The notes beneath the pieces are model-generated. The model was not told the DNA's origin and made no database searches. It worked only from the letters and a program-made list of their open reading frames with translations. From positions 1-54,320 of IMG/VR virus record IMGVR_UViG_3300031673_000059: DNA of 54,320 bases; one strand, written 5' to 3'. Of this stretch, positions 6,910 through 49,707 are shown one piece after another. The translations under genes and the position numbers were made by a program. Source of the DNA: a virus. How positions within the stretch are numbered: the first letter of the stretch is position 1; each line of letters opens with the position of its first letter.

Positions 6910-7440
6910 ATGAATCGATTCTTTGACGAACTGAAGGAGGCCCGTGACCAGGCCGCAGGCAAGAGTCGATTCAATCCCGACAAGAACCTTCGTCTCACCT
7001 ACGTAAGGGAAGAGCCCAAGGGGTGGCCGCTGACCAGGCCAGCTACTCCAGCCGAGTGGGCCCACGTCCTCAAGGTGATGATCATGCGGCGAGTTCCCAG
7101 GCATGAGCCTATTCATAGGACCAAGCTGATCCAATACGTAAGCGGCGACCTGGTGTCCGCAAGCTCCGCCGGAAGGCTCTACATGGGCCCGGAGTCGTGG
7201 GGCATGAGAAGCGTACATCTCGTGCTTGACCGACAGATGATCGGCAAGGACAAGATCCTGAGAACCGCTCCGACGATGGATGACCCGGAAATGGCCTGGA
7301 GTGCTCCTGCCATCTACAGGACCGAGCACGCTGATGGTTGGCTCGGGAGAGTGCCTGTTACCGTGAACGCCCTCGTAGACTTTCTCCCGGTGACCAACGT
7401 CCTAGATTTGATCGTACAGGCGCTCCTGGACGACGAATAG
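6910..7440 (+). CDS. hypothetical protein; C-terminal NVLDLIVQALLDDE
   Basis: ORF track, 176 aa, with protein-like composition. Confidence 0.65.
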   Translation: MNRFFDELKEARDQAAGKSRFNPDKNLRLTYVREEPKGWPLTRPATPAEWAHVLKVMIMRRVPRHEPIHRTKLIQYVSGDLVSASSAGRLYMGPESWGMRSVHLVLDRQMIGKDKILRTAPTMDDPEMAWSAPAIYRTEHADGWLGRVPVTVNALVDFLPVTNVLDLIVQALLDDE

Positions 7441-7633
7441 TAACTTCGCCGAACTGCACGATCGTTCTGGTTGTTTCGATGACCTGCCAGGATGATGCTG
7501 CAGGAAGAGATAGAACCTGTCCATTCACCGCGTCGAGTGCATCAGACTCCGTGTCGTAGTGGCCGCCTGAGCAGAGCATGTTGCCTCGCTCGCTAAAAAG
7601 CAGAAGCTCAAATCGCTTACGCGGATTAGACAA
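7358..7633 (-). CDS. hypothetical small protein
   Basis: ORF track, 91 aa. The first ~65 aa look protein-like. The tail overlaps the convergent gene 6910..7440 and looks like read-on. Confidence 0.4.
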   Translation of the reverse strand: MSNPRKRFELLLFSERGNMLCSGGHYDTESDALDAVNGQVLSLPAASSWQVIETTRTIVQFGEVTIRRPGAPVRSNLGRWSPGESLRGRSR

Positions 7634-7644
7634 GGGTCACGCTC

Positions 7645-8076
7645 TCAGATGTCAGCTAATCGATCGAGGATGGTGGTCGTCTTGGCGATTGGTCTTGGAA
7701 CAGAGTCGGATACGAATAACGGTGAATCGAAGTTAACGGTCATGCCGCCCTCAGGCATTCGGCCGAAGGCCTCGGCCCGCCTGATCACTTGCTGGAGGTC
7801 CCACGCTATCTTGCCCCCTTTCGTAGGGCAACCAGAGATTCCGTGGGAGTGATTGGGGTGGGTGAGCTCGGGAAAGCACAGCTGCCGGGCCTTGTAGAGC
7901 GCATCTTCGCAGGACTTAGAAGCAGCACTGTCAGACAGCTTGTTCCAGAACTGCTCTTGAATGATGTTGAACTGGCCGATGTGAACCCGCGCGAATAGGT
8001 CGAGCGCCGTGACGACCAGCCTGGCCTGCTCCGGCGTCATTGTGACTTGGACGAAGAAGTTCTCGTTTCCGCTCAT
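7645..8076 (-). CDS. hypothetical protein; C-terminal TILDRLADI
   Basis: ORF track, 143 aa. The ATG is 5 nt downstream of GGTATAAA. Confidence 0.7.
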   Translation of the reverse strand: MSGNENFFVQVTMTPEQARLVVTALDLFARVHIGQFNIIQEQFWNKLSDSAASKSCEDALYKARQLCFPELTHPNHSHGISGCPTKGGKIAWDLQQVIRRAEAFGRMPEGGMTVNFDSPLFVSDSVPRPIAKTTTILDRLADI

Positions 8077-8081
8077 GGCGT

Positions 8082-8089
8082 TTTATACC
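8082..8089 (-). promoter_or_regulatory. GGTATAAA, 5 nt, ATG 8076
   Basis: Plus strand reads cat ggcgt tttatacc. It forms a divergent pair with 8112..8119. Confidence 0.55.
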
Positions 8090-8111
8090 GGACTGAACCC
8101 TCGCTTGTCCG

Positions 8112-8119
8112 GGTAGAAG
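8112..8119 (+). promoter_or_regulatory. GGTAGAAG, 6 nt, ATG 8126
   Basis: gggtagaag aatccc atg. Confidence 0.5.
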
Positions 8120-8125
8120 AATCCC

Positions 8126-9891: not shown

Positions 9892-9958
9892 GGCTAATAC
9901 CTCCCGATAGCTCAGGTCGCCCGTTAATCTACGTAAGTAGGTGCAACGGAGGCCGCCG

Positions 9959-10771
9959 ATGAGGGTTCGAGAGCTTCTAATCCCACTAGTGATGCTGGGA
10001 ACGCCGGCTTTCGGACAATGCCGAGGGGCGGACGTCTCTCCTATCGAGTCGACCACTCCACCGCCCGAACCACCTAGAGCCCCAGACATCATCGAGTCTG
10101 TTATCCAGCCGACGATGACGATGACCACGAACGTGGCATTCGTGGTTGATACGTCTGGGTCTATGGACAATGATGGCCGGGTTGGCATGGCGCTTACTTT
10201 CGCCAGAGGGTTGATTGAGCGACCGACCGATCAGCTGATGATCGCTCTCCTGTCCTTCAAAGATTCACACATGAGGTGGCCCGGACTCACTGCCCAGGAG
10301 CGCGAGGCGGCTCGCATCGCCGGAACACTCCAGGCGGCCAGCTCGACTCCTCCTCCGAAGGGTTGGACCTACTTTCCAGGAGTCCCAGAGCTCGCGAGTG
10401 CTCAGGCATGGCTCACTGCGCGTGGGGCGAGCGGTGGCACAAACCCAGTCAGCGCGATCGCCGAGATCTTGTCCGAGAGCGTTAGAGATCTCACCGTCGT
10501 CCTGATCACTGATGGTGAGGACTTCGATGTTCCAGCCTTCAGATTGGCCGTGACCGCAGGCCAGGCAAGCAGAGTTCAGCGCGGTGTTGGTCGTGCGGTT
10601 ATTTTCGTTATCGGCACAGGAGGGGCCGCCGCGAATAAGCAGCATCTGCGTGATGTAGGAACGTCAGAGGGCGGCGGCCTCCACGTCATTCGTAGACCCG
10701 CCCCTCCGCCTCCACCCCAGAGGGCGCCGCAGATACCTGACCTAGATATGCCCTGGTCGCGTGACGACTAG
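9959..10771 (+). CDS. secreted von Willebrand factor A (vWA) domain protein
   Basis: The MIDAS motif is VVDTSGSM, with a later GGTN...VVLITDGEDF. The N-terminus MRVRELLIPLVMLGTPAFG looks like a signal peptide. The start is moved to ATG 9959 (GGAGG 7 nt upstream). The tail is proline-rich. Confidence 0.8.
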   Translation: MRVRELLIPLVMLGTPAFGQCRGADVSPIESTTPPPEPPRAPDIIESVIQPTMTMTTNVAFVVDTSGSMDNDGRVGMALTFARGLIERPTDQLMIALLSFKDSHMRWPGLTAQEREAARIAGTLQAASSTPPPKGWTYFPGVPELASAQAWLTARGASGGTNPVSAIAEILSESVRDLTVVLITDGEDFDVPAFRLAVTAGQASRVQRGVGRAVIFVIGTGGAAANKQHLRDVGTSEGGGLHVIRRPAPPPPPQRAPQIPDLDMPWSRDD

Positions 10772-11025
10772 ATCCACTGAACCTTGGCGCGGCGCGAGCT
10801 GCGCTTCGAGATCAGGTCGTCGAGTACCGTGGTCTGGTCGAACACGAGATCGACCTTGAAACCTAGTGCCCTTGCGACGATGGCCACGTCCTTGAGGCGC
10901 ATCTCCTCATCACCTCGAAGAATTCCTCTGACCTTCCTCCTGTCCATGCCAAGGATCTTGGCAAGCTCTGCAGGCTTCATCTCACGCTGCTCTAACTCCT
11001 CGCGGAGCTTGGCGTTACCCGTCAT
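10768..11025 (-). CDS. XRE-family helix-turn-helix regulator
   Basis: MKPAELAKILGMDRRKVRGILRGDEEMRLKDVAIVARALG. The start is ATG 11025 (GAGGTG upstream). The C-terminal region contains TVLDDLI. Confidence 0.75.
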   Translation of the reverse strand: MTGNAKLREELEQREMKPAELAKILGMDRRKVRGILRGDEEMRLKDVAIVARALGFKVDLVFDQTTVLDDLISKRSSRRAKVQWI

Positions 11026-11113: not shown

Positions 11114-12922
11114 ATGTCTGAAGATATCGCTCGACGCATCGAAACCGTCGAGAGCCTGCTCGGGTTCAATCTGCGCAGCTACCAGAACCAGGCGCTGACC
11201 GCCATCGGTCAAGGAAAGAACGTGATCTTGCACGTTCCGACCGGCGGCGGAAAGACGGTTGCGTTTCAAGGCGCTCCCTACGTGTCCCCCCATGATGGGA
11301 TCACGGTGATCCTCTATCCGCTGAGGGCTCTGGTGAAGGATCAGACTCGTCGCTTCAAGGAGATCGGTCTACCGTCCGTGACGCTATATGGGGAGACTCC
11401 TCCTAAAGACCGTCCGGCTATCTATGAGAGGATCGCCAACGGTAGCGCCAAGATCCTCCTTACGACTCCCGAGTCGTTCGACATGAATCGCCGCCTCCAG
11501 GCGGTACTCACTGAGCGAGGCGTGTCAGTCCTTACGGTTGATGAGGCCCATGCCTACGAGGAGTGGGCCGACGGCTTCAGACCGACATACCGGCGGGCCG
11601 GGCACGTCGCCCAGCGTGTAGGTGTGAAGCAGTTCCTCCTCTGCTCGGCGACCCTGACATCCAAGGGGTTCAAGACGGCTAGGGAGACCATCGGCCAGGA
11701 CAACTGGACCATCGTTCAGGTCCCGCCCATCAGGTCCAATCTCGTATACCGAGATCTGAGTGAGCCCAGCAGTGAGATCCTCTGTCGCGCCGTTCGCGGG
11801 GATGGTCTGGAAGCTCCTGGGATCGTCTTCTTCACGACGGTCAAGTGCCTGAACGAGACAGCCGACTTCATCGAACGGAAGACCAGGCGAAAGGTCCTTC
11901 GCTACAACGGTGGTATGACCGGCAAGGACCGCAGGGAGGCCCAGGATACTTTCATGTCCGGCGACCACTGGATCTTCGCTACCAAAGCGTTCGGCATGGG
12001 CATCGACAAGGACAACATCAGAAACATCATCCACTTCCAGCTACCCAATTCGATTCTCTCATACGCCCAAGAATGCGGAAGATCGGGTCGAGACGGCCAC
12101 GAGTCGACCTGTTTTCTGACCCAGAGCGAGGACGGCAACGCGGCCCAGTTCCTGATCAGCATGAGCGTCCCATCGATCAATCAGGTGCGCAGGGTCTGGA
12201 ACCTCCTTCAGACCCACTCCCTGAACTACGCCGACTGGTTTGATGTTGACTGGCCTGAGATCGCCAGCAGGGCGGATTTCTCGATCCAGCTGGTCCAGGC
12301 CTGTGTGAGCTGGCTGTTTACCGGAAAGATGATCGAGAAGAAGCAGAAGAGGCTCAACTGGAAGTTCACGATTCACGCTGATTCCGATGAGAAGGCCATC
12401 AAGTACAAGAGAAAGACGCCAGAAATCCTCGACATGCTGCGCGCGGAAGCGATGGTCGAGCAGGGACCTTCAACCTTCGAGCTGCGGCCTGAGTTACTGT
12501 CCGACAGTGTGGGCCAGGTGTTCGTCGGCTGGAGGGCGAAGCTTCGGAAGATGGTCGAGCTCGGGATCATCGAGATCGATGAGCCTCCTAAGGCGAAGTC
12601 TCAGTATCGATTCCTCCACAGGAGTTTTCACTTTGCCCAGGGCGAGGAGCAGCTGACTAAGTCTCGCTCAAGGGCGTTCGATCGTCTGGACGACATGCGA
12701 CGGCTGCAGGCCGCCCCTCCTCATCAACGGCGAAATCTCATGGAGGCGGCCATCTCTCTCAAGCTCGGCAACATCGATGGGCTTGAGATCATGGACGGTC
12801 AATACGATGAGCCGGTCGCGCCATCCAAGCCAGCCCAGAAGAAGAAGAAGAGCGAATCCACCGACCCGTTCAAGTTCGATGGGGACGGCGATGACGACGA
12901 CCCGTTCGTCATTCCCTTCTAG
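11114..12922 (+). CDS. recQ: RecQ-family DEAH-box DNA helicase
   Basis: Motifs are HVPTGGGKT, TVDEAHAYEEW, ATKAFGMGIDKDNIRNIIHFQLP and QECGRSGRDG. The start could be ATG 11114 or GTG 11108. Confidence 0.9.
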   Translation: MSEDIARRIETVESLLGFNLRSYQNQALTAIGQGKNVILHVPTGGGKTVAFQGAPYVSPHDGITVILYPLRALVKDQTRRFKEIGLPSVTLYGETPPKDRPAIYERIANGSAKILLTTPESFDMNRRLQAVLTERGVSVLTVDEAHAYEEWADGFRPTYRRAGHVAQRVGVKQFLLCSATLTSKGFKTARETIGQDNWTIVQVPPIRSNLVYRDLSEPSSEILCRAVRGDGLEAPGIVFFTTVKCLNETADFIERKTRRKVLRYNGGMTGKDRREAQDTFMSGDHWIFATKAFGMGIDKDNIRNIIHFQLPNSILSYAQECGRSGRDGHESTCFLTQSEDGNAAQFLISMSVPSINQVRRVWNLLQTHSLNYADWFDVDWPEIASRADFSIQLVQACVSWLFTGKMIEKKQKRLNWKFTIHADSDEKAIKYKRKTPEILDMLRAEAMVEQGPSTFELRPELLSDSVGQVFVGWRAKLRKMVELGIIEIDEPPKAKSQYRFLHRSFHFAQGEEQLTKSRSRAFDRLDDMRRLQAAPPHQRRNLMEAAISLKLGNIDGLEIMDGQYDEPVAPSKPAQKKKKSESTDPFKFDGDGDDDDPFVIPF

Positions 12923-16692: not shown

Positions 16693-17058
16693 ATGAAGAC
16701 CGGCGCGAGGAAGGCAGTCGTCCGTAAGCTACGGAAGATGGTGAACCGGCATATCGGCAACATGGTCGATGAGAAGTTCGAAATGGGCTGCCTGGCGGCA
16801 AGTCTGTTCCCGGACTGGGTTGAGAGCGACTACTCCACCTTTGATCTTTACCTGTTCCACGGCTGTGGAATCCCATGGAACATCGCCAGTCGCCTGGAGA
16901 CGATGGCTCACACCTACTACGAGATTCCATCTCTTCAGATTTGGATGCAGGTGGGATACACAAGAGCCGCCCAAGCAGCCGGACAAGGCCGAGAGGGCCA
17001 AATCCGAGCGCTGCTTGAAAGCGGCTCTAATGTGCTAGACGTGATGACGTTGATCTAG
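16693..17058 (+). CDS. hypothetical protein; C-terminal NVLDVMTLI
   Basis: ORF track, 121 aa. Confidence 0.65.
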   Translation: MKTGARKAVVRKLRKMVNRHIGNMVDEKFEMGCLAASLFPDWVESDYSTFDLYLFHGCGIPWNIASRLETMAHTYYEIPSLQIWMQVGYTRAAQAAGQGREGQIRALLESGSNVLDVMTLI

Positions 17059-18140
17059 ACGGCGATCGGCGCTTCGGTGCAGACCGTGGTGAGGATCCTG
17101 GTGCAGACCCGGTAGGGGTCGCAGTTGGCTCCGGGTCGCCGATCTTCGATGTAGCCGTAGCCCTGCTGGGCTACCTGGGCGGGGATGCGGATCGAGCAGC
17201 CGCGATCACTGTCACCGACCTTGAACGTGTTGATGTCGCACGTCTCGTGCTTGCCGGTCAGGCGCTTCTCCAGGCCGAAGCCGTAGTCTGCGATGTGCTC
17301 GGCGTGGACCTCCGACATCGCCTTGACCGCCGCCGCGATAGCCGACTTGCCGGTGCCTGGGTCTCGCATCTCCTTCGTGGAGAAGTTTGTGTGAGCGCCC
17401 GCACCGTTCCAGTCGCCTTGCTCAGGCTTGCAGTTGAGGGTGGCCGAGATGCCGTAGTCCTCGCCGATCCGGAACAGGAGCCAACGCGCAAAGATCAGGT
17501 GATCTGCGACTGTGAGAGGGTCGGCTGACTCGCCCGGGAACCCAGGACGATGACCGATCTGGAACTCCCACTGACCCAGCATGACTTCGGCATTGATGCC
17601 GTAGATCATCAGCCCGGCCCTCATGCAGGCGCTGAGGTGATCCTCGACCAGCTTGCGGCCCGCAACCTCGTCAGCTCCGACGCCGCAGTAGTAGGGTCCC
17701 TGAGCGCGCTGCGGGAGTCCCTTCTCCGGCCATCCAAGGGGGCGGCCAGTGTCTAGGTTGTAGAGCGTGTACTCCTGCTCGAAGCCGAACCAGGGATCGT
17801 GGTCCTCAGCGACCGACATGATGTCCCGCAGACGGCTGCGAGTGTTGGTCTTGTGCGGCATGTCGTCTGGAGTGGTGACCTCGCACAGGACCAGGAAGTT
17901 GGCGCCGCCGCGAATCGGGTCGTTGACGACGCGAACCGGGGTGAGCACCTGGTCTGAGTTGGACGTCCCCGCCTGATTGGTCGACGAGCCGTCGAAACCC
18001 CAGACCGGAAAGGACGTGTAGTCGATGACGCCCTTCTGATCATCGGGTAGATAGACCACACGGGTCTTCGACCGAAGGTTCTGGACAGGGATGTCGGCGG
18101 ATCCGCCGTCCATCCAGATGTATTCAGCTCGTACGTGCAT
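17055..18140 (-). CDS. glnII: glutamine synthetase type II (eukaryote-like GSII)
   Basis: 361 aa. Blocks are AEYIWMDGG...LRSKTRVV, FGFEQEYTL, YYCGVGA, INAEVMLGQWEFQIG, GAGAHTNFS, RLTGKHET and SIRIP...YIEDRRPGANCDPY. Confidence 0.92.
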   Translation of the reverse strand: MHVRAEYIWMDGGSADIPVQNLRSKTRVVYLPDDQKGVIDYTSFPVWGFDGSSTNQAGTSNSDQVLTPVRVVNDPIRGGANFLVLCEVTTPDDMPHKTNTRSRLRDIMSVAEDHDPWFGFEQEYTLYNLDTGRPLGWPEKGLPQRAQGPYYCGVGADEVAGRKLVEDHLSACMRAGLMIYGINAEVMLGQWEFQIGHRPGFPGESADPLTVADHLIFARWLLFRIGEDYGISATLNCKPEQGDWNGAGAHTNFSTKEMRDPGTGKSAIAAAVKAMSEVHAEHIADYGFGLEKRLTGKHETCDINTFKVGDSDRGCSIRIPAQVAQQGYGYIEDRRPGANCDPYRVCTRILTTVCTEAPIAV

Positions 18141-18429: not shown

Positions 18430-19611
18430 CTAGTCTATTGATCCGACGATCCGATCGAGCACACCGACCATGTCGAGCATTGTCCCTAGGTATTCGATCG
18501 CCTTGTCTTTCCCCCAGGCGTGGAGCAGACACTCCCTCTCCTTGGGGCCGCCCTTGCAGGTTACCCCGTCCTTCTCGCCGAGCGCCTTGACTACGCTCGA
18601 ATCGAACGCCTCGTTGTTCTTCCTCTGCATCTTGATGTTGATGACCCTCTTCCGAGGGCCGATGGTGATGGTGTAGTCGCCGTAGGCGATGGCGTACCAA
18701 GGCTCGTTTTTGAACTGGTCCTTGTAGTAGCCGTTGGGGAGCTCCGTCCTCGTCTTGTTGGCCAGTCCGACCGCCTCGAAGATCTCGTTGAAGAGCTTGG
18801 CGTGCCGGAGCTTGATCGGGTCGACCGGGACCTCGATTTCCTGACTCCGCCCTGCGTCCACCGCCTCCCAGGTCCACTCGCCGTCGACCTTGTTCTGGAT
18901 CCAGACGCTGACCTCATCGCCGGGAACCTGGGGAGGGATAGGGGACGCAGGGTGCCCAGTCTGGTACCAGGACTTCTTGCCGGCCGCCGCGTGGGCTTCG
19001 AGCGCGTCTAGGATCTCCTGGGAGTGTCTCTTTACCTCGTAGAGGGCGTTCTCGGCCATGTTCTTGAGAACTGCCATCCGGTCGATGGCGTCAGGGGCGT
19101 CCATCATGCCCCATTCCGAGCCCGGGTCTGACACCCGCCTCTTCCAGTTGGGCTCCCACTGACCGATGGTTTTCAGGAGGCCGAGGAGCAGAGGACCCTT
19201 CTTGGGCTCGGCTACCCCGCCATCGAGAAGCGGAAAGACCAGCATCCCGATCGGGCCTCCGGCTCCGAGTTCGGCCAGCCTAGCGACAGCAGTGTTCCGA
19301 TCTGCCTCAGGGGTCAAGGGGGTGACAAGCGCTCTGAGCTGAGAGACCTCTTCGTCGAAGGCGGCCTTGTTGGCCCGCCAGGTCTTGAGGACCGTGCCGT
19401 TGAACCAGTCGGCCACCCTCTCGGAGAGACCCTCGCCCGGCTTCCGCATGAGCATGAAGAGGTTCCCGCCGTCGGCGGCCATATGGACCCCGAACCGGTC
19501 GCAGCCCTTGCACTTGAAGTTGCTCTGCGACATCCCGCCGAAGGAACCACCGTGACCCTGCCACTTAGGCGCGGCGCAGATACAGGACGGTACGTTCTCT
19601 GGCAACGCCAT
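18430..19611 (-). CDS. hypothetical protein; C-terminal GVLDRIVGSID
   Basis: ORF track, 393 aa. TAATG overlap with the NADAR gene. Confidence 0.7.
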   Translation of the reverse strand: MALPENVPSCICAAPKWQGHGGSFGGMSQSNFKCKGCDRFGVHMAADGGNLFMLMRKPGEGLSERVADWFNGTVLKTWRANKAAFDEEVSQLRALVTPLTPEADRNTAVARLAELGAGGPIGMLVFPLLDGGVAEPKKGPLLLGLLKTIGQWEPNWKRRVSDPGSEWGMMDAPDAIDRMAVLKNMAENALYEVKRHSQEILDALEAHAAAGKKSWYQTGHPASPIPPQVPGDEVSVWIQNKVDGEWTWEAVDAGRSQEIEVPVDPIKLRHAKLFNEIFEAVGLANKTRTELPNGYYKDQFKNEPWYAIAYGDYTITIGPRKRVINIKMQRKNNEAFDSSVVKALGEKDGVTCKGGPKERECLLHAWGKDKAIEYLGTMLDMVGVLDRIVGSID

Positions 19612-33703: not shown

Positions 33704-33844
33704 ACCTACGACTGGGAGGTGGGCGCCAGGCTGGTTGCCCAACTGATCGCGTCCAAGGACCCACTAGGGCTGGTCGAGTCGTGGGAGACGCCGGACAACT
33801 GCGAGCTGCCAGGATATGGCCGGGTGCGGATCGACAACGTCTAG
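33704..33844 (+). other. 46 in-frame coding-like codons after TGA 33701 (readthrough / selenocysteine / sequencing error candidate)
   Basis: TYDWEVGARLVAQLIASKDPLGLVESWETPDNCELPGYGRVRIDNV*. Most third positions are G/C, as in genes here. There is no usable start codon. It ends in a 4-nt overlap (ctag) with the stop of the convergent capsid gene. Confidence 0.4.
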
Positions 33845-35803: not shown

Positions 35804-36139
35804 TCAGTTGTGTCGATGCTCGGCGATTTTCTCCTTGTTCTCGCTCATGAGCTGCCACTGCCGGCGGTCCGCCTCGTCGTTGCGGTCCAGGCGCGCGTTG
35901 ATAACCGCCCGATCCTCCTTGAGGGCCTGGATCGCCTTCTCGTTCTCACTAAGGCGCGAGTGGATGCCACCGAAGACGTAGCTGATGACCGCGATTGAGC
36001 CAGGAATGAAGACCAGCGCGAGAAGCGCGAGGAGTCCCTTGACCGCCCACTGAGGGATATGTCCAGGGTCCGATTGCTGGACCACAATCGGCGCCGGGGC
36101 CTGAGGATCAAAAGGGGCTGGGTCGTCTGGGGGCATCAC
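35804..36139 (-). CDS. single-pass membrane protein with coiled coil
   Basis: The TM segment is GLLALLALVFIPGSIAVISYVFGG, followed by a charged helix. Confidence 0.65.
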   Translation of the reverse strand: MMPPDDPAPFDPQAPAPIVVQQSDPGHIPQWAVKGLLALLALVFIPGSIAVISYVFGGIHSRLSENEKAIQALKEDRAVINARLDRNDEADRRQWQLMSENKEKIAEHRHN

Positions 36140-36166: not shown

Positions 36167-36188
36167 AACCCTAGCTAAACGTAGGGTT
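36167..36188 (-). terminator. hairpin (7-bp stem aacccta/tagggtt) at the stop of gene 36188..36541
   Basis: Read directly from the sequence. No clear U-tract. Confidence 0.35.
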
Positions 36189-36541
36189 TAGGACTTGATG
36201 TAGCCCGTGCGGCCGCAGTTCTTGCAGGTCTCGTCTCGGGCAATCCAGCCCGTGCCGACGCAGTCCGGGCAGGCCCTTAGGCCCAATAGGCTTACGAGCT
36301 TGTTGCGCGGCGTCGTGCCGACCAGGCCCACGTCCTTGAGCTCTGAGAACGTGGTCAGAATGCCGAGCGCTTGGTGGTGCTTGGAGACGACCTTGCCCAT
36401 GCCGTCCAGCTCGGTCTCGGCCTTGGCCCTCCTCTCCTCATCAGCTGCGAGGTAGGCGGTGACCGCGTCACACATCTTCTCCAGCGCGACCAGCGACTTG
36501 TACATCTGTTGGCGCATTTGGTCTTCAGCTGGAGTGGTCAT
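36188..36541 (-). CDS. protein with C-terminal DnaJ-type CxxCxGxG zinc finger
   Basis: CPDCVGTGW...CKNCGRTGY. Confidence 0.7.
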   Translation of the reverse strand: MTTPAEDQMRQQMYKSLVALEKMCDAVTAYLAADEERRAKAETELDGMGKVVSKHHQALGILTTFSELKDVGLVGTTPRNKLVSLLGLRACPDCVGTGWIARDETCKNCGRTGYIKS

Positions 36542-36845
36542 CGAGCTCCTTGGCCATCTGGTCGAGCACGTTGATCGACTCGACCTTCTCTACCCACATG
36601 GGATAGTACCAGGTCTTGGGCATGACCACACCGTTTGTCGTTTTGATCGTGAGGGGGCCGGGACTGTCCTTCCAGGAGATCCGGATCTCCCCGTCGTCGT
36701 CATCGTTCATGGGCAGACACTCGACGACTACGCCGGTGAACTCCCAGTCGTAGCCGCCGGCCTCCTTGTCGAGCCAGACGACCTCGTCTCCGAGCCTAAG
36801 CCAGCATCCGTTGGGCGTCTTCCAAGCCACAAGCGTTGTCTCCAT
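36525..36845 (-). CDS. hypothetical protein; C-terminal NVLDQMAKELDDHSS
   Basis: ORF track, 106 aa. Confidence 0.65.
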   Translation of the reverse strand: METTLVAWKTPNGCWLRLGDEVVWLDKEAGGYDWEFTGVVVECLPMNDDDDGEIRISWKDSPGPLTIKTTNGVVMPKTWYYPMWVEKVESINVLDQMAKELDDHSS

Positions 36846-37219
36846 CAGTCGAAGTCTGCTTCCACAGCCATCCGGACAAGCACGTTGTTGAAGTCGTTGA
36901 AGTCGGCCAGAAGCTGATCGATCAGCTTCTGCTCACTCATCGTCGATCCATCTTGCCTGAGGGCCAAAGGGATGATGTTGAACCAGACGACGTTGTTGAA
37001 GGAGGCGTTTCCCCTTCGGTACTTCTTGGCCAAGAACTGCTGGAAGTCCTGAAACGTGCTCGTGCCGTGTAGACCGGCGTGCTCGTCAGCCCCCCACGCG
37101 TAACCGCTGATGTAGGAGACGGCCATGTCGTAGTTGGTCTTCCCTACGTACATCGCTGGCCGGAGCAGGATTTCCCGAATCCTCTTAACGATCTTCGGCG
37201 ACAACCTAGTGCTGTGCAT
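36845..37219 (-). CDS. hypothetical protein; C-terminal NVLVRMAVEADFD
   Basis: The start is ATG 37219 (GAGGAG 5 nt upstream), giving MHSTRLSPKIVKRIREILLRPAMYVG... Confidence 0.65.
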   Translation of the reverse strand: MHSTRLSPKIVKRIREILLRPAMYVGKTNYDMAVSYISGYAWGADEHAGLHGTSTFQDFQQFLAKKYRRGNASFNNVVWFNIIPLALRQDGSTMSEQKLIDQLLADFNDFNNVLVRMAVEADFD

Positions 37220-37221: not shown

Positions 37222-37506
37222 TTACTCCTCGATGGCGCCCAGGATGTCGAGCACGGTGCCGTTGATGTTGGTGTCTAGCGTCTGCAGTCGCTGTGGACTG
37301 AGGATCCTGATCCGCCCCGTCTTGAGGTTGAGGGCCGCTCGAACATCGCATGTTCCTCGGCAGCAAGAGAGCAGAGCGAATGTCGTCTCCAGTGAACCGG
37401 CCTCTCCTCCAACGCCGTCCTGCGTAAGGAGCTGACCATCGATGGGGCACCGCTGCTGCATGAGCCGAGCGATACGGTCGTGCTTGGCCTGCTTGGCCTT
37501 ACTCAT
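37222..37506 (-). CDS. hypothetical protein; C-terminal TVLDILGAIEE
   Basis: ORF track, 94 aa. Confidence 0.6.
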   Translation of the reverse strand: MSKAKQAKHDRIARLMQQRCPIDGQLLTQDGVGGEAGSLETTFALLSCCRGTCDVRAALNLKTGRIRILSPQRLQTLDTNINGTVLDILGAIEE

Positions 37507-38214: not shown

Positions 38215-38654
38215 CCCTGCTCCACCCTCACCAGGAACGGCGGCCGGTACGTGGGGAACACCGACCGGACCCAGTGATCCCAGTGGGTGTTCTCCCAGTC
38301 GTAGTCATCGACGATCCGGGGCTCGTTCTGGTAGTTGATGACGCCTACCTGGAGGCAGCTGGGATCGGTCAGCTTCTTGCCGGCGGCCCTCTTCCAGTAG
38401 GCTACTACCAGAGCGTCAGCATACCTAGTGCCCTGGTCGGGTCGAGTGCTCATGTCGATACCGACGATGACCTCCTCGGACTCGCCCAGCTTGTTCCAGA
38501 AGTGCTGGACCAAGTCCGGCACCTCAACTGCCATGGCGTGGACCTGTAGTCCACCGTCCTTGTCCATCGAGATCATCTGGTGAGGGTAGACTCCTTCCTC
38601 ATCGATCGCGATCTTGACCATGCCCATAAACGTCTCGGGGAGCGTCTCGCTCAT
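38211..38654 (-). CDS. hypothetical protein
   Basis: The start is ATG 38654 (ATGA overlap), giving MSETLPETFMGMVKIAIDEEG... The longer track ORF is junk upstream of this point. Confidence 0.65.
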   Translation of the reverse strand: MSETLPETFMGMVKIAIDEEGVYPHQMISMDKDGGLQVHAMAVEVPDLVQHFWNKLGESEEVIVGIDMSTRPDQGTRYADALVVAYWKRAAGKKLTDPSCLQVGVINYQNEPRIVDDYDWENTHWDHWVRSVFPTYRPPFLVRVEQG

Positions 38655-39259
38655 GCTTCGTCTTCCTTGTCCGATTTGTCTAGGGCGTGGACGATCCGGT
38701 CTAGGAGCGGCATCGTCTCGTCTTCCAGCTCCCACTCGTGGACCTGACACATCATCCGGCATACTTCGTGGAAGTCGCTGATCCGCCTCTTGCCCCAGTA
38801 CTTGTCCCGAATGACGGCGGTGGCCGGAGCCTCCCAAGAGTAGTTGTTGTCCGTCCAGCAGTAGTTCTGCTCGGTACCCTCGGTCCATTGGTGGATCGTC
38901 GCCTGCGTGTCGGACATTAGCTGGAGGCCGTGCGCAACCTCGATCGCGTGGGCTCGCATGAGCTCGACGTTTGGCACGTTCCGCATGATGATTGTGATTA
39001 CCTCGCCGCTCCTGTCGTGAGCGACCGGGTCGGTCTTGTGGAGGACCAACTTGCTCACGTCCCGCCAGGGGATGTGGAAGCACTTCTCCAGCATCGCAAG
39101 TCGGTCGTAACCATCATCAGGCTTGTGTCTGAAGCACAACGCCTCGTAGGCACCGTCCTCTCTCCGATATAGCTGGGTGCAGAACCGACCTCCTCTGCCG
39201 CCCTCTTGGTGGCACTTGGTGCAGTGAAGCTCGCCCCTGAAGACCTTGCCGTTTTCCAT
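38651..39259 (-). CDS. hypothetical Cys/His-rich protein; C-terminal PLLDRIVHALDKSDKEDEA
   Basis: ORF track, 202 aa. First gene of an 11-gene coupled block. Confidence 0.7.
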   Translation of the reverse strand: MENGKVFRGELHCTKCHQEGGRGGRFCTQLYRREDGAYEALCFRHKPDDGYDRLAMLEKCFHIPWRDVSKLVLHKTDPVAHDRSGEVITIIMRNVPNVELMRAHAIEVAHGLQLMSDTQATIHQWTEGTEQNYCWTDNNYSWEAPATAVIRDKYWGKRRISDFHEVCRMMCQVHEWELEDETMPLLDRIVHALDKSDKEDEA

Positions 39260-40562: not shown

Positions 40563-41027
40563 ATGAACGACACAATCAAAAACGATGACGCTAAGCATCA
40601 ATACGTGTTGGTTGCCATGTGGACCGCGAAGGATCATCACGGGCAAGAGCAATACTCCCACCGAGTGGTTCATTCGACGTGGGAGGGCGAGTGGGACCCG
40701 AAAGGTATCGTCGAGCGCTACGTCCAGACGGAGCACCCGACCTGGATGCCGGACAGCTTCGGCAAGATCGGATACTTCATGGCGGAGGCTGAGGTCGAGC
40801 TCAGCCGAGTCGCGGTCTATAAGGTGGTCGGCGGCCGCCACGAAGACGCCTGGCCTGAATGGCTTGAGGAAGCAAGGGCTAAGCGCGCCTCAATCGATGT
40901 GGAGCGCGAGCGTATGGCCGACATGCAGACGATCGCACTGCTTCAGAGGAAGTGGGGCCTAGGTGAGCAAACAGAAGCCAAAGAAGCGAGCGCAGCGACT
41001 GAAGAGGGCGAAGCGGCGGAAGCATAG
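40563..41027 (+). CDS. hypothetical protein with acidic tail
   Basis: Start moved to ATG 40563 (MNDTIKNDDAKHQYVLVAMW...). Confidence 0.65.
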   Translation: MNDTIKNDDAKHQYVLVAMWTAKDHHGQEQYSHRVVHSTWEGEWDPKGIVERYVQTEHPTWMPDSFGKIGYFMAEAEVELSRVAVYKVVGGRHEDAWPEWLEEARAKRASIDVERERMADMQTIALLQRKWGLGEQTEAKEASAATEEGEAAEA

Positions 41028-41253
41028 GTTCGACCTAGCCATCGAGCACTTCACTGAGTGCGGCGATGCGGCTCAGCCGAAGGCGTGGATCTCGGACCCC
41101 AAGACAGGCATGCACGTCGAGTTCGTGTGCCCTAAGTGCAAGTTGAAGTACTGGCGGCACAATGAGACCTGGGAGTTTGAGATCAGGGGCGTCGGCAGGA
41201 TCTGTGCCAACAACCCTACAGTCCTCGATCTACTTACCCTGGGAGAGGTATAA
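40963..41253 (+). CDS. hypothetical basic/zinc-ribbon protein; C-terminal TVLDLLTLGEV
   Basis: ORF track, 96 aa (GTG start). It overlaps the previous gene by 65 nt. Confidence 0.55.
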   Translation: MSKQKPKKRAQRLKRAKRRKHRFDLAIEHFTECGDAAQPKAWISDPKTGMHVEFVCPKCKLKYWRHNETWEFEIRGVGRICANNPTVLDLLTLGEV

Positions 41254-44239: not shown

Positions 44240-44416
44240 ATGAGTCAAGTCCCGTGCACCGGCCCTGAGTGTCTGCTCTGTAAGCTCCTTGGCGAGCCCA
44301 CCTCCGTTCAGGTTCCGGTCAAGGACCTGAACGACGACGGCAAGGTCAAGTTGATGACCATGAAGAAGAACAAGGCTCTGGAGCTCGGCCTGATCAAGGA
44401 CGAGGCTAATGACTGA
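44240..44416 (+). CDS. hypothetical small protein (58 aa, below ORF-track cutoff)
   Basis: MSQVPCTGPECLLCKLLGEPTSVQVPVKDLNDDGKVKLMTMKKNKALELGLIKDEAND*. The start is fixed by the promoter motif. Confidence 0.5.
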   Translation: MSQVPCTGPECLLCKLLGEPTSVQVPVKDLNDDGKVKLMTMKKNKALELGLIKDEAND

Positions 44417-44756
44417 GACGCAGACCAGACTCAATCTCCTCGACCGACTGGCGATGATCGCCGAGACCAAGGAGATCAAGATCAACGTCCACGGAATGGA
44501 TGGCAACGCCGGGAACCTTATCGGCGTCTGCAAGTCGGCCATGTGGGCAGAGAAGCTCCCGCCTGCAGTCGTGGGGACCTTTCAGCGTGAGGCCCGATCC
44601 AAAGACTACGCCCACGCCCTGGTGACCTGTGACCTGTGGTTCACGCTCGTCGACATCGCACCGTCTGGATCGAGCGGGTCTCTCATCGGCAGCTTGCGGC
44701 GGCTCGGCCTGGCGCCGAAGCCCCAGGAGGAACTCTGTTGGAGAGGGTGGGACTGA
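44409..44756 (+). CDS. hypothetical protein; motif-like NLLDRLAMIAE at the N-terminus
   Basis: ORF track, 115 aa. Confidence 0.6.
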   Translation: MTETQTRLNLLDRLAMIAETKEIKINVHGMDGNAGNLIGVCKSAMWAEKLPPAVVGTFQREARSKDYAHALVTCDLWFTLVDIAPSGSSGSLIGSLRRLGLAPKPQEELCWRGWD

Positions 44757-44953
44757 TGCCTGAGCCGAGGATCAGGCTCTACTGGAGCAAGAGGGAGAAC
44801 TCCCTGATGGGGGACAATGATGAGGGCGCCGGCAGAGGCACCGTCATCTACCTTTTCTCGCTCTTTGACAAAGACGTTCGAGACGAGCTCGAACGGCGGG
44901 GCTACGACCTCACGACCCTGAGGTTCCAGATCAGGAAGAAGCCTGATGCCTAA
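44756..44953 (+). CDS. hypothetical small protein
   Basis: The start is ATG 44756 (TGATG overlap), giving MPEPRIRLYWSKRENS... Confidence 0.55.
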   Translation: MPEPRIRLYWSKRENSLMGDNDEGAGRGTVIYLFSLFDKDVRDELERRGYDLTTLRFQIRKKPDA

Positions 44954-45470
44954 GTACCGGGAGGAGCGACAACTCAAGGCCCCGGTCCCCGGAGCCTTCG
45001 GGCTCGGCGCCAACGAGGACGCGCGGGCCAGGGACCTGTGGCAGCTGACCCAGCGACAAGCTCGGTATAGGGACAGGCTCTACATCTTCGTCGAGGAGGA
45101 GTATGGCTACGCCTCTTACCTGTGGACTTATCCCGGGACCCCAGAAGAGCTCGTCGATGACTGGTGCGCGGGTAGGGTTCCGTGGAGCGGACCGCTCGAC
45201 AAGCCCCTCTACAGAGGGGAGTTCAATCCGGCCGCCTTCCACACGCACGAGGCGAATCGAGGCATGCCCTATCCGCGATCTCTGGAACTACGGCTCACAG
45301 AGACCAACCAGGTGGTCGAAGGGTTCTCCCATATCAGCCACTTCGATGGGATCGCCCACTACCATGAGGAGGATGACTCCCACCTAAGGGTCGGCTTCTA
45401 CGAGGTCAACGGGTTCCGAAAGCCCGAGGTCGTGTTCCACGTCCTCGATGCGCTGGCCGCGATTACATAG
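44946..45470 (+). CDS. hypothetical protein; C-terminal HVLDALAAIT
   Basis: ORF track, 174 aa. Confidence 0.65.
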   Translation: MPKYREERQLKAPVPGAFGLGANEDARARDLWQLTQRQARYRDRLYIFVEEEYGYASYLWTYPGTPEELVDDWCAGRVPWSGPLDKPLYRGEFNPAAFHTHEANRGMPYPRSLELRLTETNQVVEGFSHISHFDGIAHYHEEDDSHLRVGFYEVNGFRKPEVVFHVLDALAAIT

Positions 45471-46825: not shown

Positions 46826-46833
46826 GTTCTACC
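46826..46833 (-). promoter_or_regulatory. GGTAGAAC, 5 nt, ATG 46820
   Basis: Plus strand reads cat gttta gttctacc. Divergent with 46872..46879. Confidence 0.55.
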
Positions 46834-46871
46834 TTCGATGAATCGCTGTTGGTCGCTCGTTGGTTCTGAAA

Positions 46872-46879
46872 GGTAGAAG
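46872..46879 (+). promoter_or_regulatory. GGTAGAAG, 5 nt, ATG 46885
   Basis: ggtagaag aacgt atg. Confidence 0.55.
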
Positions 46880-46884
46880 AACGT

Positions 46885-47580
46885 ATGACGCACCTGTCTG
46901 ACAAGGAAAAGGAAGAGCACCTCAAGCTCGTCCTGGACGAACTCCCTCCCGAGTTCAAGAAGCTGGCCGATCTCCGGTCCTACGGACCCCAGTTGCGGGT
47001 CAGCCATGCAACGGTCGAGGTCGAACACGACTGGTACAGCAAAGCCAACACGATGAAGCTGTCCTTCAGTTACAACGTCCTGGACGAAGAAGGCGTCGGG
47101 GCTAAGAATCGATCGTGGAAGCAGCGAGGTCGAGACAACAAGTTCTGCTACGACCGATGCGCCGCACACATCGTCGATGTGCTCACCAAGTATGAAGCTC
47201 TTCAAAAGCGGCGGCGACAGGGCGATTCCATCGCCAAGAAGCGGGGCGAGGTCCTCAAGGAGGCCTTCAGGAGCGACCCTCTGCTCGGCGGCCTGGATCT
47301 TGAAGTCCAGACTAGTACCACTCCACGGACGGAGTCCGGGTCGGTAGACGTCGAAATCCGGGGCAAGGACTATTGCGGCTCCAACGCTTCGTTGAAGTTC
47401 GACGGCGAGGCCTTTCACGGCCAGGTGGACGTCTACGGGCTCTCGGCTGAGCAAGTGGCGGCCCTGATGGTTGTCGTAAGACTCGACAAGCTGGGTGTGC
47501 TCGACCTGATCGCGCTCTCTGACGACTCGATCCTCGGTGCATCCATCCGAAAACTGACCGAAGGGCTTAACAACGCATGA
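46885..47580 (+). CDS. hypothetical protein; GVLDLIALSDD 17 aa from the C-terminus
   Basis: ORF track, 231 aa. Confidence 0.65.
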   Translation: MTHLSDKEKEEHLKLVLDELPPEFKKLADLRSYGPQLRVSHATVEVEHDWYSKANTMKLSFSYNVLDEEGVGAKNRSWKQRGRDNKFCYDRCAAHIVDVLTKYEALQKRRRQGDSIAKKRGEVLKEAFRSDPLLGGLDLEVQTSTTPRTESGSVDVEIRGKDYCGSNASLKFDGEAFHGQVDVYGLSAEQVAALMVVVRLDKLGVLDLIALSDDSILGASIRKLTEGLNNA

Positions 47581-48002
47581 AGTTCTACGCCGTATTCAAG
47601 ACTGTGGTCGAGAAGCATGTCGAGCTCGACGCCGACAGCTGGGAAGCGGCGGCCGAGATCGCCAACACGATGAAGCGGCCGATCGTCCAGGCCGAGACTT
47701 CACTTGAAGTCGTCGCCATGTGTGCGTGCGAACACCCCGAGTGCGAGTGCGACTACTACGACGCGGCCCACGAGCTCGTCGGTCCTTGCAACAAGTGCGG
47801 CTTCCAGATCCTTGAGCGGGGTTGTACCGATGCGTGCAAGGACCAGCACCAGCACTCGGAGAGCGACCTCACTTACAGCCGAGGTGGCGGTTGGTGCTCG
47901 ACGAAGCACGGCCACATGTCGTGGTGCTCCCAGGCCTGCCGAGATGCTGATCGAGCTAATGATCCAGAGGTCGAAGTACTCGACAGGATGGCAGGGATCT
48001 AG
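47577..48002 (+). CDS. hypothetical Cys-rich protein; C-terminal EVLDRMAGI
   Basis: ORF track, 141 aa. ATGA overlap. Confidence 0.65.
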   Translation: MKFYAVFKTVVEKHVELDADSWEAAAEIANTMKRPIVQAETSLEVVAMCACEHPECECDYYDAAHELVGPCNKCGFQILERGCTDACKDQHQHSESDLTYSRGGGWCSTKHGHMSWCSQACRDADRANDPEVEVLDRMAGI

Positions 48003-48244
48003 AACGAGTAGAGACCGGCCCCAGGTCCGCCTGATGACGGCGGCCGAGGAAGACCACGCTTCGCTCTCAACTTCTCATCAAGCATGGCCAGCTGCTCGAC
48101 ACGAGCCGTCTCCACGAACGGACGTAGGTCCCAGTTGTAGTCGCCCTTGACCTGGACGTTGTAGGGTCCGATCCACAGGTTCTGCTTCTCGCAGTAGTGG
48201 AACCCACGCTCGATGAGAGCCTGGCGATAGTCGTCAGGCGACAT
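47999..48244 (-). CDS. hypothetical protein (paralog of 48412..48738)
   Basis: Shared blocks are RGF.(Y/W)C..Q.W(I/V)GP and DE(K/Q)LRAKRG.PR. Confidence 0.6.
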   Translation of the reverse strand: MSPDDYRQALIERGFHYCEKQNLWIGPYNVQVKGDYNWDLRPFVETARVEQLAMLDEKLRAKRGLPRPPSSGGPGAGLYSF

Positions 48245-48380
48245 CGATCCACAGCTCCTCGAACTCCCCGCTCTCGCGAAGCGCCTTCAAATCGGCTTCT
48301 AAGTCTTGATCGCGCCTGGGTTTAGTATTTACCACACCGAAAACAAGGTCCCAACACCATCTAAACGCTGCTTTGATCAT
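48234..48380 (-). CDS. possible small protein (48 aa, below ORF-track cutoff)
   Basis: MIKAAFRWCWDLVFGVVNTKPRRDQDLEADLKALRESGEFEELWIDVA*. AAGGA lies 8 nt upstream. Its stop overlaps the start of the next gene. Confidence 0.35.
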   Translation of the reverse strand: MIKAAFRWCWDLVFGVVNTKPRRDQDLEADLKALRESGEFEELWIDVA

Positions 48381-48411
48381 GGGTTAGGTCCTTGTGTACC
48401 GCAATGCAGAG

Positions 48412-48738
48412 TTACTGCCCCGGCGGCGCGGATTGGCGGTATGGATCTCGTGGTTGACCACGCTTTGCGCGCAGCTGCTCGTCGACATCAGCGAGCAGTG
48501 ACTTGCGCAGCCCCGAGATCCCAGGACCGACCATGCCGCCCATGAGGCCCGACGTTCCGATCCCGTCTGGAGTGTCGCGGCCCGACGTCGTGGGGTAGTT
48601 GGACTCGTTCGCCACGCCGGTGACGGTGATCCCGAAGGGGCCGACCCACTGATTACCGCACCAGCGGAATCCACGAGACTTGAGCTCAGCCTCGAATTGT
48701 GGAGCGGACATCGGCGGTTTATCGAACGGTCCAGACAT
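48412..48738 (-). CDS. hypothetical protein (paralog of 47999..48244)
   Basis: ORF track, 108 aa. Confidence 0.6.
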   Translation of the reverse strand: MSGPFDKPPMSAPQFEAELKSRGFRWCGNQWVGPFGITVTGVANESNYPTTSGRDTPDGIGTSGLMGGMVGPGISGLRKSLLADVDEQLRAKRGQPRDPYRQSAPPGQ

Positions 48739-48901
48739 AACCCCAGTCTAGCTGACGCGGGGACTAAACCGTCGGATGCAGAACGGTGTGTACAAATTCC
48801 GCTGTGGCTTTCCTACTACTGATGCGCTACGACGGACCTCAAAAAATGCGGTACCACTAAATGGTCGGTCGATGAATGCCGCCGGGTATACGTAAGCAGA
48901 G

Positions 48902-49345
48902 ATGAAGCCTACCGCCTACCGAATCAAGCGAACCAAGTTAGCCGACGCTGACACCTTTGACGGCAACCATCCGGGGCACGTCGCCTACTTACAGATCCAC
49001 ATCAGCGGCGGCCGGAAGTATGGGTTCAAGTCGAACCCGCGTGTCTGTCTTTACTGCAAGGACTACCACGAGGCGATTGATTTTCCGACGGCGGCCGCCG
49101 CCAAGAGGCAGCTCAGGTCCTCCGCCGTGAGGTCCTACTTTGCCCCGGAGATCAGCTGGGTACACGACGGCTACAAGGTCGAGGTGGTCGAGCTCCGGTT
49201 CGAGGAGTGCGACGAGACCAACGCCTTCTTCAAGGCGAAGGCGCCCTTCGAGCCTGCAGTTCCCGCCGGGCACCACGTCGTGGTCAGGGAGCGGGTGGTC
49301 TGGCCTGTTCCTCCTGTCCTCGACCGATTGGCGGCCATCGAATGA
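48902..49345 (+). CDS. hypothetical protein; C-terminal PVLDRLAAIE
   Basis: ORF track, 147 aa. Confidence 0.65.
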   Translation: MKPTAYRIKRTKLADADTFDGNHPGHVAYLQIHISGGRKYGFKSNPRVCLYCKDYHEAIDFPTAAAAKRQLRSSAVRSYFAPEISWVHDGYKVEVVELRFEECDETNAFFKAKAPFEPAVPAGHHVVVRERVVWPVPPVLDRLAAIE

Positions 49346-49707
49346 CCGAAGGGGAGATCGTCGAAGAGGTCCTCGCTCGGACGAAGGAGCTCGCCAAGCT
49401 CCACGCCGCACCGCTACGGACTCACTCCGCCGGCGAGAGGGACTTCAACTTCAACAACTTCTGGTTCAAAATCTCGTTCTACGTTCCGAAGTACTGGTCG
49501 CTCTTAGGTCCGAAGTTCGGAGAGATCAAGACGCTGGCGGTCTACGCCACCGGCACCTATACCAATCCGCTTTTCTGGCTCAACCGAGAGGCGAGTAGTC
49601 CTGATGGGCTGTGGGAGATTGACAAGCCCGCGTGTGAGGGCCTTCTAATCTCGCTGCGAGCATCGATGATCCTTGATGATCTCGCGGGTATCAGTCCTGG
49701 GGCCTAA
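49342..49707 (+). CDS. hypothetical protein; C-terminal MILDDLAGISPGA
   Basis: The start is ATG 49342 (ATGA overlap), giving MTEGEIVEEVLARTKEL... Confidence 0.6.
   Translation: MTEGEIVEEVLARTKELAKLHAAPLRTHSAGERDFNFNNFWFKISFYVPKYWSLLGPKFGEIKTLAVYATGTYTNPLFWLNREASSPDGLWEIDKPACEGLLISLRASMILDDLAGISPGA

Follow-up and report, generated by a model that had tools for sequence, protein, structure and literature searches.

About one-fifth of the proteins encoded by a 54,320-nucleotide stretch of viral DNA, the IMG/VR record IMGVR_UViG_3300031673_000059, carry the same short peptide, in most cases at the C-terminus. This whole stretch, referred to here as the window, has a G+C content of 60% and is densely coding, with about 93 genes arranged in short units and with frequent strand switches. 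The shared peptide, which we call the tag, is best explained as a portable amphipathic alpha-helix of 9-10 residues, mostly C-terminal. Its consensus is [N/T/G/P]-[VIL]-L-D-[R>Q,D,A,L]-[LIM]-[AV]-x-[E/A/I]-[LVI], which can be simplified to N-V-L-D-R-L-A-x-I; an example of the tag peptide, as a 12-16-mer, is DPEVEVLDRLAGIE. Far from being confined to this genome, the tag is common to a clade of large uncultured phages with short gp23-like capsid proteins, and it probably serves as a short linear docking motif that binds one common partner.

An earlier note on this DNA, made from the sequence alone, had listed 20 C-terminal instances of the peptide and three variants elsewhere. All of them translate as written, and the start codon is ambiguous for 22611..23096 only (22431, 22611 or 22731). 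When the approximately 93 proteins were searched with the regular expression [VIL]L[DE].[LIM][AVGT], 20 matches were returned, 17 of which lie within the last 32 residues; the positional binomial for this C-terminal placement gives P = 4e-10. In 2000 shuffled proteomes the number of C-terminal matches had a mean of 0.26 and a maximum of 4. The note had expected less than one such match by chance, as is indeed the case, and had named comparable counts after shuffling as grounds for dismissing the pattern; the counts, 0.26 versus 17, are not comparable. A leave-one-out position-specific scoring matrix (PSSM) with a threshold of >=10 bits identified 18 sites, 17 C-terminal and one N-terminal, and scored 18 of the 89 gene open reading frames (ORFs) against one of the 529 non-gene ORFs of the window. 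With the relaxed variants counted, 21 of about 93 proteins are tagged C-terminally, one is tagged near the N-terminus and one internally, so that the tag is C-terminal in 21 of its 23 copies in the window. The observation is stronger than it was first reported to be. Some individual instances did not fare as well. The internal variant SLLDDLG in 26316..26678 was judged unconvincing, and both 10768..11025 (TVLDDLIS) and 36845..37219 (NVLVRMAVE) are weaker members, the second of which is still a real one because its orthologs keep the same variant. The gene 40963..41253 was not called by the gene pipeline and is supported by a tagged ortholog in a relative (L030, below).

What is conserved is the protein and not the DNA. 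A DNA weight matrix of the tag sites holds its information at codon positions 1-2, with only 0.07-0.45 bits at third positions. Its best non-training matches in the window are again in frame, and no strong out-of-frame, antisense or intergenic copies of the tag were found there. The hydrophobic tag positions are filled with L/I/M or V/I by way of codons that differ at the first base, and in 63% of the tag residues that orthologs share, the codon differs, with synonymous sites saturated. The earlier claim of conservation at the protein level is confirmed by the codon-position information, the in-frame matches and the codon differences between orthologs. The same results refute the view that the tag is a translated DNA or RNA signal at gene ends, such as a promoter, a terminator, a processing or a recombination site, or else a chance or compositional artefact, since third codon positions are nearly without information, copies in other frames or outside genes are lacking, conserved residues differ synonymously between orthologs, and shuffles and non-gene ORFs yield about 0-1 matches. 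The one point in favour of a nucleic acid signal is a mild deviation in the codons used for the invariant Leu (CTG in 2 of 21, versus 34% genome-wide), which is unimportant given the ortholog data.

The tag carriers are 58-393 residues long and, as the note had it, otherwise unrelated: an all-against-all BLASTP search found no similarity among them, which also rules out hidden paralogy. Searches of the tagged proteins with Pfam and PHROGs made no assignment beyond a few exceptions (an XRE helix-turn-helix (HTH), Gp23, and two weak or doubtful ones). The annotated carriers are an XRE-type HTH protein (10768..11025), capsid paralog B, which is one of two capsid paralogs of the window, and a winged-HTH protein that bears a doubtful variant of the tag (1043..1351); 40963..41253 has a weak zinc-ribbon match in Pfam (E = 0.008). 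When all tagged proteins were scanned against Pfam (E <= 0.05), only HTH families and the one weak zinc-ribbon match came up, and no SHOCT.

The helical nature of the tag is indicated by the spacing of its hydrophobic residues, which stand at i, i+1, i+4, i+5 and i+7/8. Computed at 100 degrees, the angle of a helix, the hydrophobic moment is 0.48, compared with 0.20 at 170 degrees, the angle of a strand. On such a helix, the V/I, L, L/I/M, A/V and I/L positions would line up as one hydrophobic stripe, and the N/T/G residue together with the Asp would form a helix capping box with the Asp at the N3 position. In the AlphaFold model of capsid B, the tag is a helix (residues 308-315) with a predicted local distance difference test (pLDDT) score of 91-97. 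The moment, the modelled helix and the N-cap together bear out the description of the tag as amphipathic. The distance from the core to the true C-terminus is 0-24 residues; 13 of 21 tags end within four residues after the core and the remainder trail by up to 18 residues, with acidic tails in which Asp is enriched 2.8-fold and the net charge is -18 over 90 residues.

The relatives of this phage were reached through the family of short gp23-like capsid proteins, and their loci are syntenic with the window. Tags were found on 3 of 11 genes of a 3.3 kb contig (L021), on 9 of 45 genes of the 203.5-kb IMG/VR contig IMGVR_UViG_3300025150_000002 (L025-L027), on 7 of 35 genes of the 52.5-kb contig Ga0233410_10000025 (L030), and on 7 of 46 genes of the 150.8-kb ERZ28654253 scaffold_19 (L034). 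A 12.7 kb contig (L031) has 3-7 tags, and a distant relative (L023/L024) has at least five tagged neighbours, including the ortholog of 7645..8076. The tagged share of genes is 15-20% in the 150, 203 and 52 kb relatives and 15-23% overall. In the relatives, which were outside the training set of the PSSM, 21 matches fall in 4512 C-terminal residues versus 9 in 14,800 other residues, and three of these nine are an internal capsid motif described below. A more distant gp23-type locus, L028, has no tags.

Whether a protein is tagged depends on its family. In ten orthogroups every member seen carries the tag; ClpS, the ligase, the DHH protein, the kinase, DUF4326, capsid A and others are without it throughout the window and the relatives. 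Over 13 ortholog pairs, the nine residues of the tag core are 69.6% identical versus 49.0% for the rest of the proteins (Fisher p = 2.6e-5), and the tag is maintained at the protein level by purifying selection. At the same time the tags are modular: they have been gained, lost, and have survived a gene fusion. The copy that the note had placed at a domain junction of 21566..22423 is internal because a small tagged gene was fused to a DUF3841 gene; the counterpart in L030 consists of two adjacent genes, one for a 115-residue protein (...YILDRIAREL..., 17370..17717) and one for the DUF3841 protein (16910..17422). A tag still present on the L025 and L030 orthologs is missing from 44756..44953. 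The N-terminal copy of 44409..44756 is conserved, with a counterpart in L025. A metagenome scan with the ortholog pair of 50479..51000, which has a decayed copy, found nothing.

One orthogroup is particularly informative about the role of the Asp. In the orthogroup of 36845..37219, this residue is replaced with V, T or I in four genomes while all other tag positions are kept. The Asp is therefore dispensable, which argues against its being the P1 residue of a protease site or a metal ligand. A protease site is suggested by comparison with phage T4, whose capsid-targeting sequence (CTS) is a short N-terminal peptide that sends unrelated proteins into the gp23-type prohead and is removed by gp21 at L/I-x-E. 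In a similar manner, a T4-like prohead protease might cut the proteins of our phage after V-L-D and release the tail as a C-terminal propeptide. The gp23-like capsid proteins, the hydrophobic-x-acidic core and the Glu that stands for Asp at two sites all fit such a cut. A P1 residue, the one right before the cut, would however hardly be expected to accept replacement by V, T or I; beyond the Asp, the conservation continues for at least five residues at the period of a helix; and a helix is what the model shows for the segment. The tag also differs from the T4 CTS in being C-terminal, helical and tolerant of the loss of its acidic residue, and none of the loci read showed a gene for a protease. 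We consider a cleavage site improbable.

The probable function of the tag, as stated above, is docking. One conserved partner would offer a groove for the hydrophobic side of the helix, and many unrelated small proteins would thereby be recruited to the same place or machine; a single partner may well serve all tags. The earlier proposal that the peptide docks many proteins to a common partner is borne out in part: the portable and selected module now stands, and stands across a phage clade, as a docking or targeting tag would predict. The opposite view is that there is no common partner, and that the tag is a generic C-terminal capping or oligomerisation helix which packs on its own carrier and was spread by recombination at gene ends. 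The very high confidence of the helix in the monomer model of capsid B would agree with this, making cis packing probable there, and the promiscuity of short C-terminal modules is exemplified by SHOCT, a very small domain that many unrelated proteins have, mostly at their C-termini (PMC3581485). It is, however, a Pfam family of its own, and the tag is shorter than SHOCT and limited to a single clade of phages. Folds as unrelated as HK97, HTH and zinc ribbons, on chains of 58-393 residues, would not impose the same seven positions on a self-packing helix, and the tag sequence is constant across carriers and across deep divergence. The DNA similarity between copies is also too low for recent recombination. 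A helix that serves only its own carrier thus seems unlikely.

About as unlikely, though perhaps a shade less so, is a degron or adaptor tag, by which a phage or host protease or unfoldase would clear small, probably early, proteins at a set time. The C-terminal location of the tag, the small and unannotated carriers, a promoter type shared with non-structural genes and a ClpS homolog kept near these genes in every relative would all suit this role. ClpX-type C-degrons, on the other hand, need a free terminus, and ClpS reads N-terminal residues, not C-terminal helices. The tag core lies up to 24 residues from the terminus and is followed by acidic tails of variable length; N-terminal or internal copies are kept under selection; and the capsid paralog carries the tag as a well-packed helix in the model.

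A docking motif of a known kind that should be considered is the one used by the T4 proteins gp43, gp33 and gp55, which have interchangeable hydrophobic and acidic C-terminal epitopes on variable linkers, all binding to one hub, the sliding clamp (PMC2988020). The tag is alike in composition, and as with those clamp ligands it is hydrophobic plus acidic, C-terminal and position-tolerant; some of its carriers are HTH or zinc-ribbon proteins and the capsid protein is distantly T4-like. If the tag were such a clamp "toolbelt" motif, one would look for it on replication enzymes, which are untagged: the ligase, helicase, DHH, kinase and NUDIX proteins lack it in the window and in the relatives, whereas a capsid paralog has it. 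Its pattern is helical (i, i+3/4) rather than extended and contains no aromatic residues, and no gene for a polymerase, a gp33/gp55-like protein or a clamp was found in the DNA read. Clamp binding is thus very improbable, slightly more so than the cleavage site.

If the tag is a docking motif, the first clue to its partner may be the capsid. The window encodes two capsid paralogs, A (33841..34779, minus strand) and B (34825..35778, minus strand), which are short, gp23-like and 27% identical to each other. Paralog B is tagged; paralog A is untagged and would be a candidate for the shell and receptor. The AlphaFold model of B, built on a 52-sequence family alignment, has a pLDDT of 92 and a predicted template modelling score of 0.90, while a 6-sequence alignment gave a pLDDT of only 41. 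It shows an HK97 fold with spine helix, E-loop, and P and A domains. Foldseek retrieved T4 gp23 and gp24 at the top with a probability of 1.00, and encapsulins as well, and the protein also matches Pfam Gp23. Word-indexed searches found almost no homologs of B, searches for related loci with capsid B alone or the major-vault-protein (MVP) homolog alone found nothing, and a scan of a genome collection with the capsid alignment likewise found nothing; it was an exhaustive profile search with A and B that found the family (P0126-P0166). Its members, which may be the virion capsid proteins, are short (about 290-350 residues) and gp23-like with an HK97 fold; they fall into A-type and B-type paralogs and occur only in large phages that are uncultured. 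The C-termini of B-type members read ...NVLERMAKAVEDAD in P0131, ...NVLDQVADAVS in P0137, ...NALDRIAKAVTP in P0144 and ...GLLDRLARSVT in P0158. A tag-like motif is also found internally, just before the spine helix, as STVLDRIID in P0135, SPTVLDRMVA in P0142 and APTLLDRLAH in P0158. A-type members have neither the C-terminal tag nor the internal motif. In the window, the capsid genes are immediately preceded by four genes that carry the tag.

Because the sole tagged family of known function is a minor capsid paralog, we tentatively suggest, by analogy, that the partner is capsid-associated and that the tag docks onto the HK97-fold shell or the prohead interior; the tagged proteins would then be head-internal cargo. 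Among the partners named in the earlier note, the gp23-like shell is the only candidate with a sequence-level link, in the form of the B-type motifs, and the unmarked capsid of L034 tells against it. MVP, another of these candidates, is disfavoured, as other MVP-carrying phage contigs are tagless. The phage-like contigs that have the MVP gene alone in common (L015, L016, L018-L020; about 72 kb) have no tags, their sole above-threshold match, NSNVNDTLVGEV, not being one; and a search with the MVP alignment found no MVP in IMG/VR, where the tag-rich 203-kb relative resides. In L015, L016, L018 and L019 the MVP gene occurs with DUF7873, and also with Ro60/TROVE-vWA except in the short L016. The VWA-domain protein 9941..10771 was considered as a partner binding the Asp via its MIDAS motif and rejected in view of its export-signal-like N-terminus and of the tag family that has no Asp. 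MIM1/MIT-type binding, to which the tag may bear some likeness, was likewise set aside; no MIT or Vps4-like domain was found in the Pfam matches of about 40 window proteins or in the precomputed matches for the fetched loci.

Several observations weigh against a common docking partner or against its place in the capsid. In none of the loci read do the capsid paralogs have a portal, protease, scaffold or terminase gene nearby. In L034 the capsid paralog has no motif although the neighbouring genes are tagged. In capsid B the helix of the tag is modelled with such high confidence in the monomer that it may pack in cis, and in this protein the tag may, judging from the model, have a purely structural role. 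An XRE-type regulator among the tagged proteins would be an unusual cargo. Finally, most tagged genes share the promoter-like element GGTA[TGA]A[AG] with the helicase, ligase, kinase and ClpS genes, and capsid A and B are without it, both being preceded by TTGTGGTAC instead; with this difference, the tagged genes do not have the look of a dedicated head module. The element itself stands 5-12 nucleotides upstream of many start codons (8077-8125, 24188-24285, 44109-44239, 46821-46884 and 51271-51424), often with TCGATGAAT some 20-25 nucleotides further upstream, and GGTATAA is enriched 29-fold in upstream regions. Since the element directly adjoins start codons, the mRNAs would be leaderless or nearly so.

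There is a precedent for a helix of this kind at the capsid. In the scaffolding protein (SP) of phage 80alpha and in SaPI1 CpmB, a C-terminal amphipathic helix of 11 residues binds the N-arm of the capsid protein through L-x-x-I-A contacts made by L194, I197 and A198 (PMC5644958). The likeness lies in a short C-terminal amphipathic helix common to otherwise different proteins, with an L-x-x-I-A spacing that matches the tag core L-D-R-[LIM]-[AV]; the tag shares the C-terminal helix of about 11 residues but has no RIIK hook after it. The helix of SP and CpmB binds the inner face, the N-arm helix, of an HK97-fold capsid protein; for the tag, such binding is a proposal. There are also two carriers there versus about 20% of the proteome here, and the carriers here are not recognisable scaffolds. 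The comparison with encapsulins and with the T4 CTS that the note had drawn holds for function only, the defining features of both being absent. Family 1 encapsulins use a short peptide, usually C-terminal and occasionally N-terminal, to send unrelated cargo into an HK97-fold lumen, and the peptide has a Gly/Ser-rich consensus of the SDGSLGIGSLKRS or (L/T)VGSL type (PMC8346489). The tag bears no resemblance to this consensus, and the gene context is different: encapsulin cargo is encoded beside its shell gene and not in a phage, while the shell-like proteins here match Pfam Gp23, are closest to T4 gp23/gp24 and belong to a large phage genome. Encapsulins have one to a few cargo types, compared with dozens of tagged proteins here. 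Among recruitment systems outside viruses, the encapsulation peptides of bacterial microcompartments and the Rubisco-binding motif of the pyrenoid likewise use one short motif, amphipathic or linear, to bring many unrelated proteins into a compartment bounded by protein or to a hub; the sequences are different, there is no shell or Rubisco context here, and the setting is viral. Full-text literature searches found no description of such a tag. A profile of 36 tags matched only a de novo designed protein among PDB sequences, at E = 0.2, and no Pfam or PHROGs model covers the tag. Shared docking or targeting peptides are thus known as a kind; the sequence, the viral setting, the proteome-wide scale and the conservation across a clade are new.

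Table 1. Copies of the tag and its variants. Positions are those of the window unless a contig is named; "(end)" marks a peptide or C-terminus directly followed by the stop codon.
Tag	Position	Strand	Carrier	Orthologs and remarks
NVLDLIVQAL	7396..7425	+	6910..7440, 176 aa	
TILDRLADI (end)	7648..7674	-	7645..8076, 143 aa	L023, distant relative: GILDQLADI
TVLDDLISKR	10801..10830	-	10768..11025	weaker; directly after XRE-type HTH domain
NVLDVMTLI (end)	17029..17055	+	16693..17058	
GVLDRIVGSI	18436..18465	-	18430..19611, 393 aa	
YVLDKIVRKL	21863..21892	+	21566..22423	internal; fusion with DUF3841 protein
NILDRIVAEL	23058..23087	+	ORF ending 23096	L030: TLLDRIVNELD (end)
NALDKLALIE	25030..25059	-	25006..25407	L030: SALDRLALLD
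MILDDIVDAV	26996..27025	-	26951..27352	L025: MILDDLADI (end)
TVLEVMAYAL	30934..30963	-	30919..31161	Glu variant
NVLERLAQIV (end)	34828..34857	-	34825..35778, capsid paralog B	
NVLDQMAKEL	36543..36572	-	36525..36845	L025 and L031 tagged
NVLVRMAVEA	36857..36886	-	36845..37219	variant; orthologs in L021, L025, L031, L034
TVLDILGAIE	37228..37257	-	37222..37506	
PLLDRIVHAL	38681..38710	-	38651..39259	L025, L030 and L034 tagged
TVLDLLTLGE	41218..41247	+	40963..41253	L030 tagged
NLLDRLAMIA	44433..44462	+	44409..44756	N-terminal; NPLDRLVEAT near N-terminus of L025_1881_2444
HVLDALAAIT (end)	45438..45467	+	44946..45470	L025: RVLDALASIR (end)
GVLDLIALSD	47494..47523	+	46885..47580	followed by second conserved stretch DDSILGxSI
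EVLDRMAGI (end)	47973..47999	+	47577..48002	L030: EVLDRLAGIE (end)
PVLDRLAAIE (end)	49313..49342	+	48902..49345	
MILDDLAGIS	49666..49695	+	49342..49707	
SVLRQLASAG	1052..1081	-	1043..1351, winged-HTH protein	newly added; possible degenerate variant
...GTVLDDIVEALEETDE (end)			L006:12728..13135	newly added; gene just past right end of window
			50479..51000	newly added; decayed copy; L017: PLLDRLRKEL (end)

Several neighbours of the tagged genes deserve mention. A small protein encoded by 35804..36136 (minus strand) is always found directly upstream of the capsid gene or genes, with orthologs in L021, L029, L030, L031 and L034. The protein combines a coiled-coil segment with one transmembrane helix, and its C-terminus is rich in His (...KEKIAEHRHN); as a single-pass membrane protein it was ruled out as scaffold or receptor. 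Another small protein, 36188..36541 (minus strand), lies among the tagged genes beside the capsid genes and has two zinc-finger motifs of the DnaJ type, CxxCxGxG; its ortholog L031:1512..1973 has a tag-like SALERMADAI near the N-terminus. The ClpS homolog 31197..31505 (plus strand) is kept in synteny, a few kb from a capsid gene, in every relative read (L021, L025, L030, L031 and L034). The C-terminus of the DEAD/DEAH helicase 11114..12922 (plus strand) reads ...DGDGDDDDPFVIPF; this acidic tail, whose last residue is hydrophobic or aromatic, resembles the C-termini of SSB and of T7 gp2.5/gp4 and represents a second, distinct motif of the C-terminal docking type in the same genome. The VWA-domain protein 9941..10771 (plus strand) has an intact MIDAS motif (DTSGS), an N-terminus like a signal peptide or lipobox and a Pro-rich C-terminus, and is probably exported.

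The window further encodes a HerA/FtsK-type ATPase, a DEAD helicase, an ATP-dependent ligase, a glutamine-synthetase-like protein, and DHH, NUDIX, AAA_33, ClpS, hemerythrin and other products. The MVP homolog (979 residues) is encoded at 51425..54320 (plus strand), and its reading frame is completed in L006:8251..11190. It shares 47-59% identity with proteins from metagenome-assembled genomes of Planctomycetes, Polyangia and others, a similarity that hints at the host and at the acquisition of MVP from it. The 1101-residue ORF 2095..5400 (minus strand), with an FGE-sulfatase domain, has an atypical codon-position G+C of 0.59/0.59/0.69 versus about 0.60/0.42/0.80 in other genes; it was called by the public pipeline and missed by our codon model. 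A megablast search with 20 kb of the window found no match among GenBank phages. The identical genome is present in several soil metagenome assemblies, one of which, L006, adds 2.3 kb beyond the window; the source soils are JGI 3300031578 and 3300031669.

The tag defines a phage clade by a molecular system and not by gene content. If it is a docking signal, dozens of phage proteins that are otherwise uninterpretable would gain one shared partner or destination. If that destination is the capsid, the system would be a natural, modular loading of proteins into an HK97-type shell, with a cargo far broader than that of encapsulins or the T4 CTS, and of relevance both for phage biology, through co-injected effectors, and for engineering. 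It is conceivable, though doubtful at present, that this phage clade runs a protein-sorting code of its own, in which the helix routes about one-fifth of the proteome, for the most part small uncharacterised proteins, to one destination built from or attached to the gp23-like capsid proteins. Such a destination might be the interior of the head, from which takeover proteins would be co-injected, or an intracellular compartment derived from the capsid. The tag would then be the first described case, in a bacterial virus, of an address tag on the scale of a proteome, and would offer a ready handle for loading foreign proteins.

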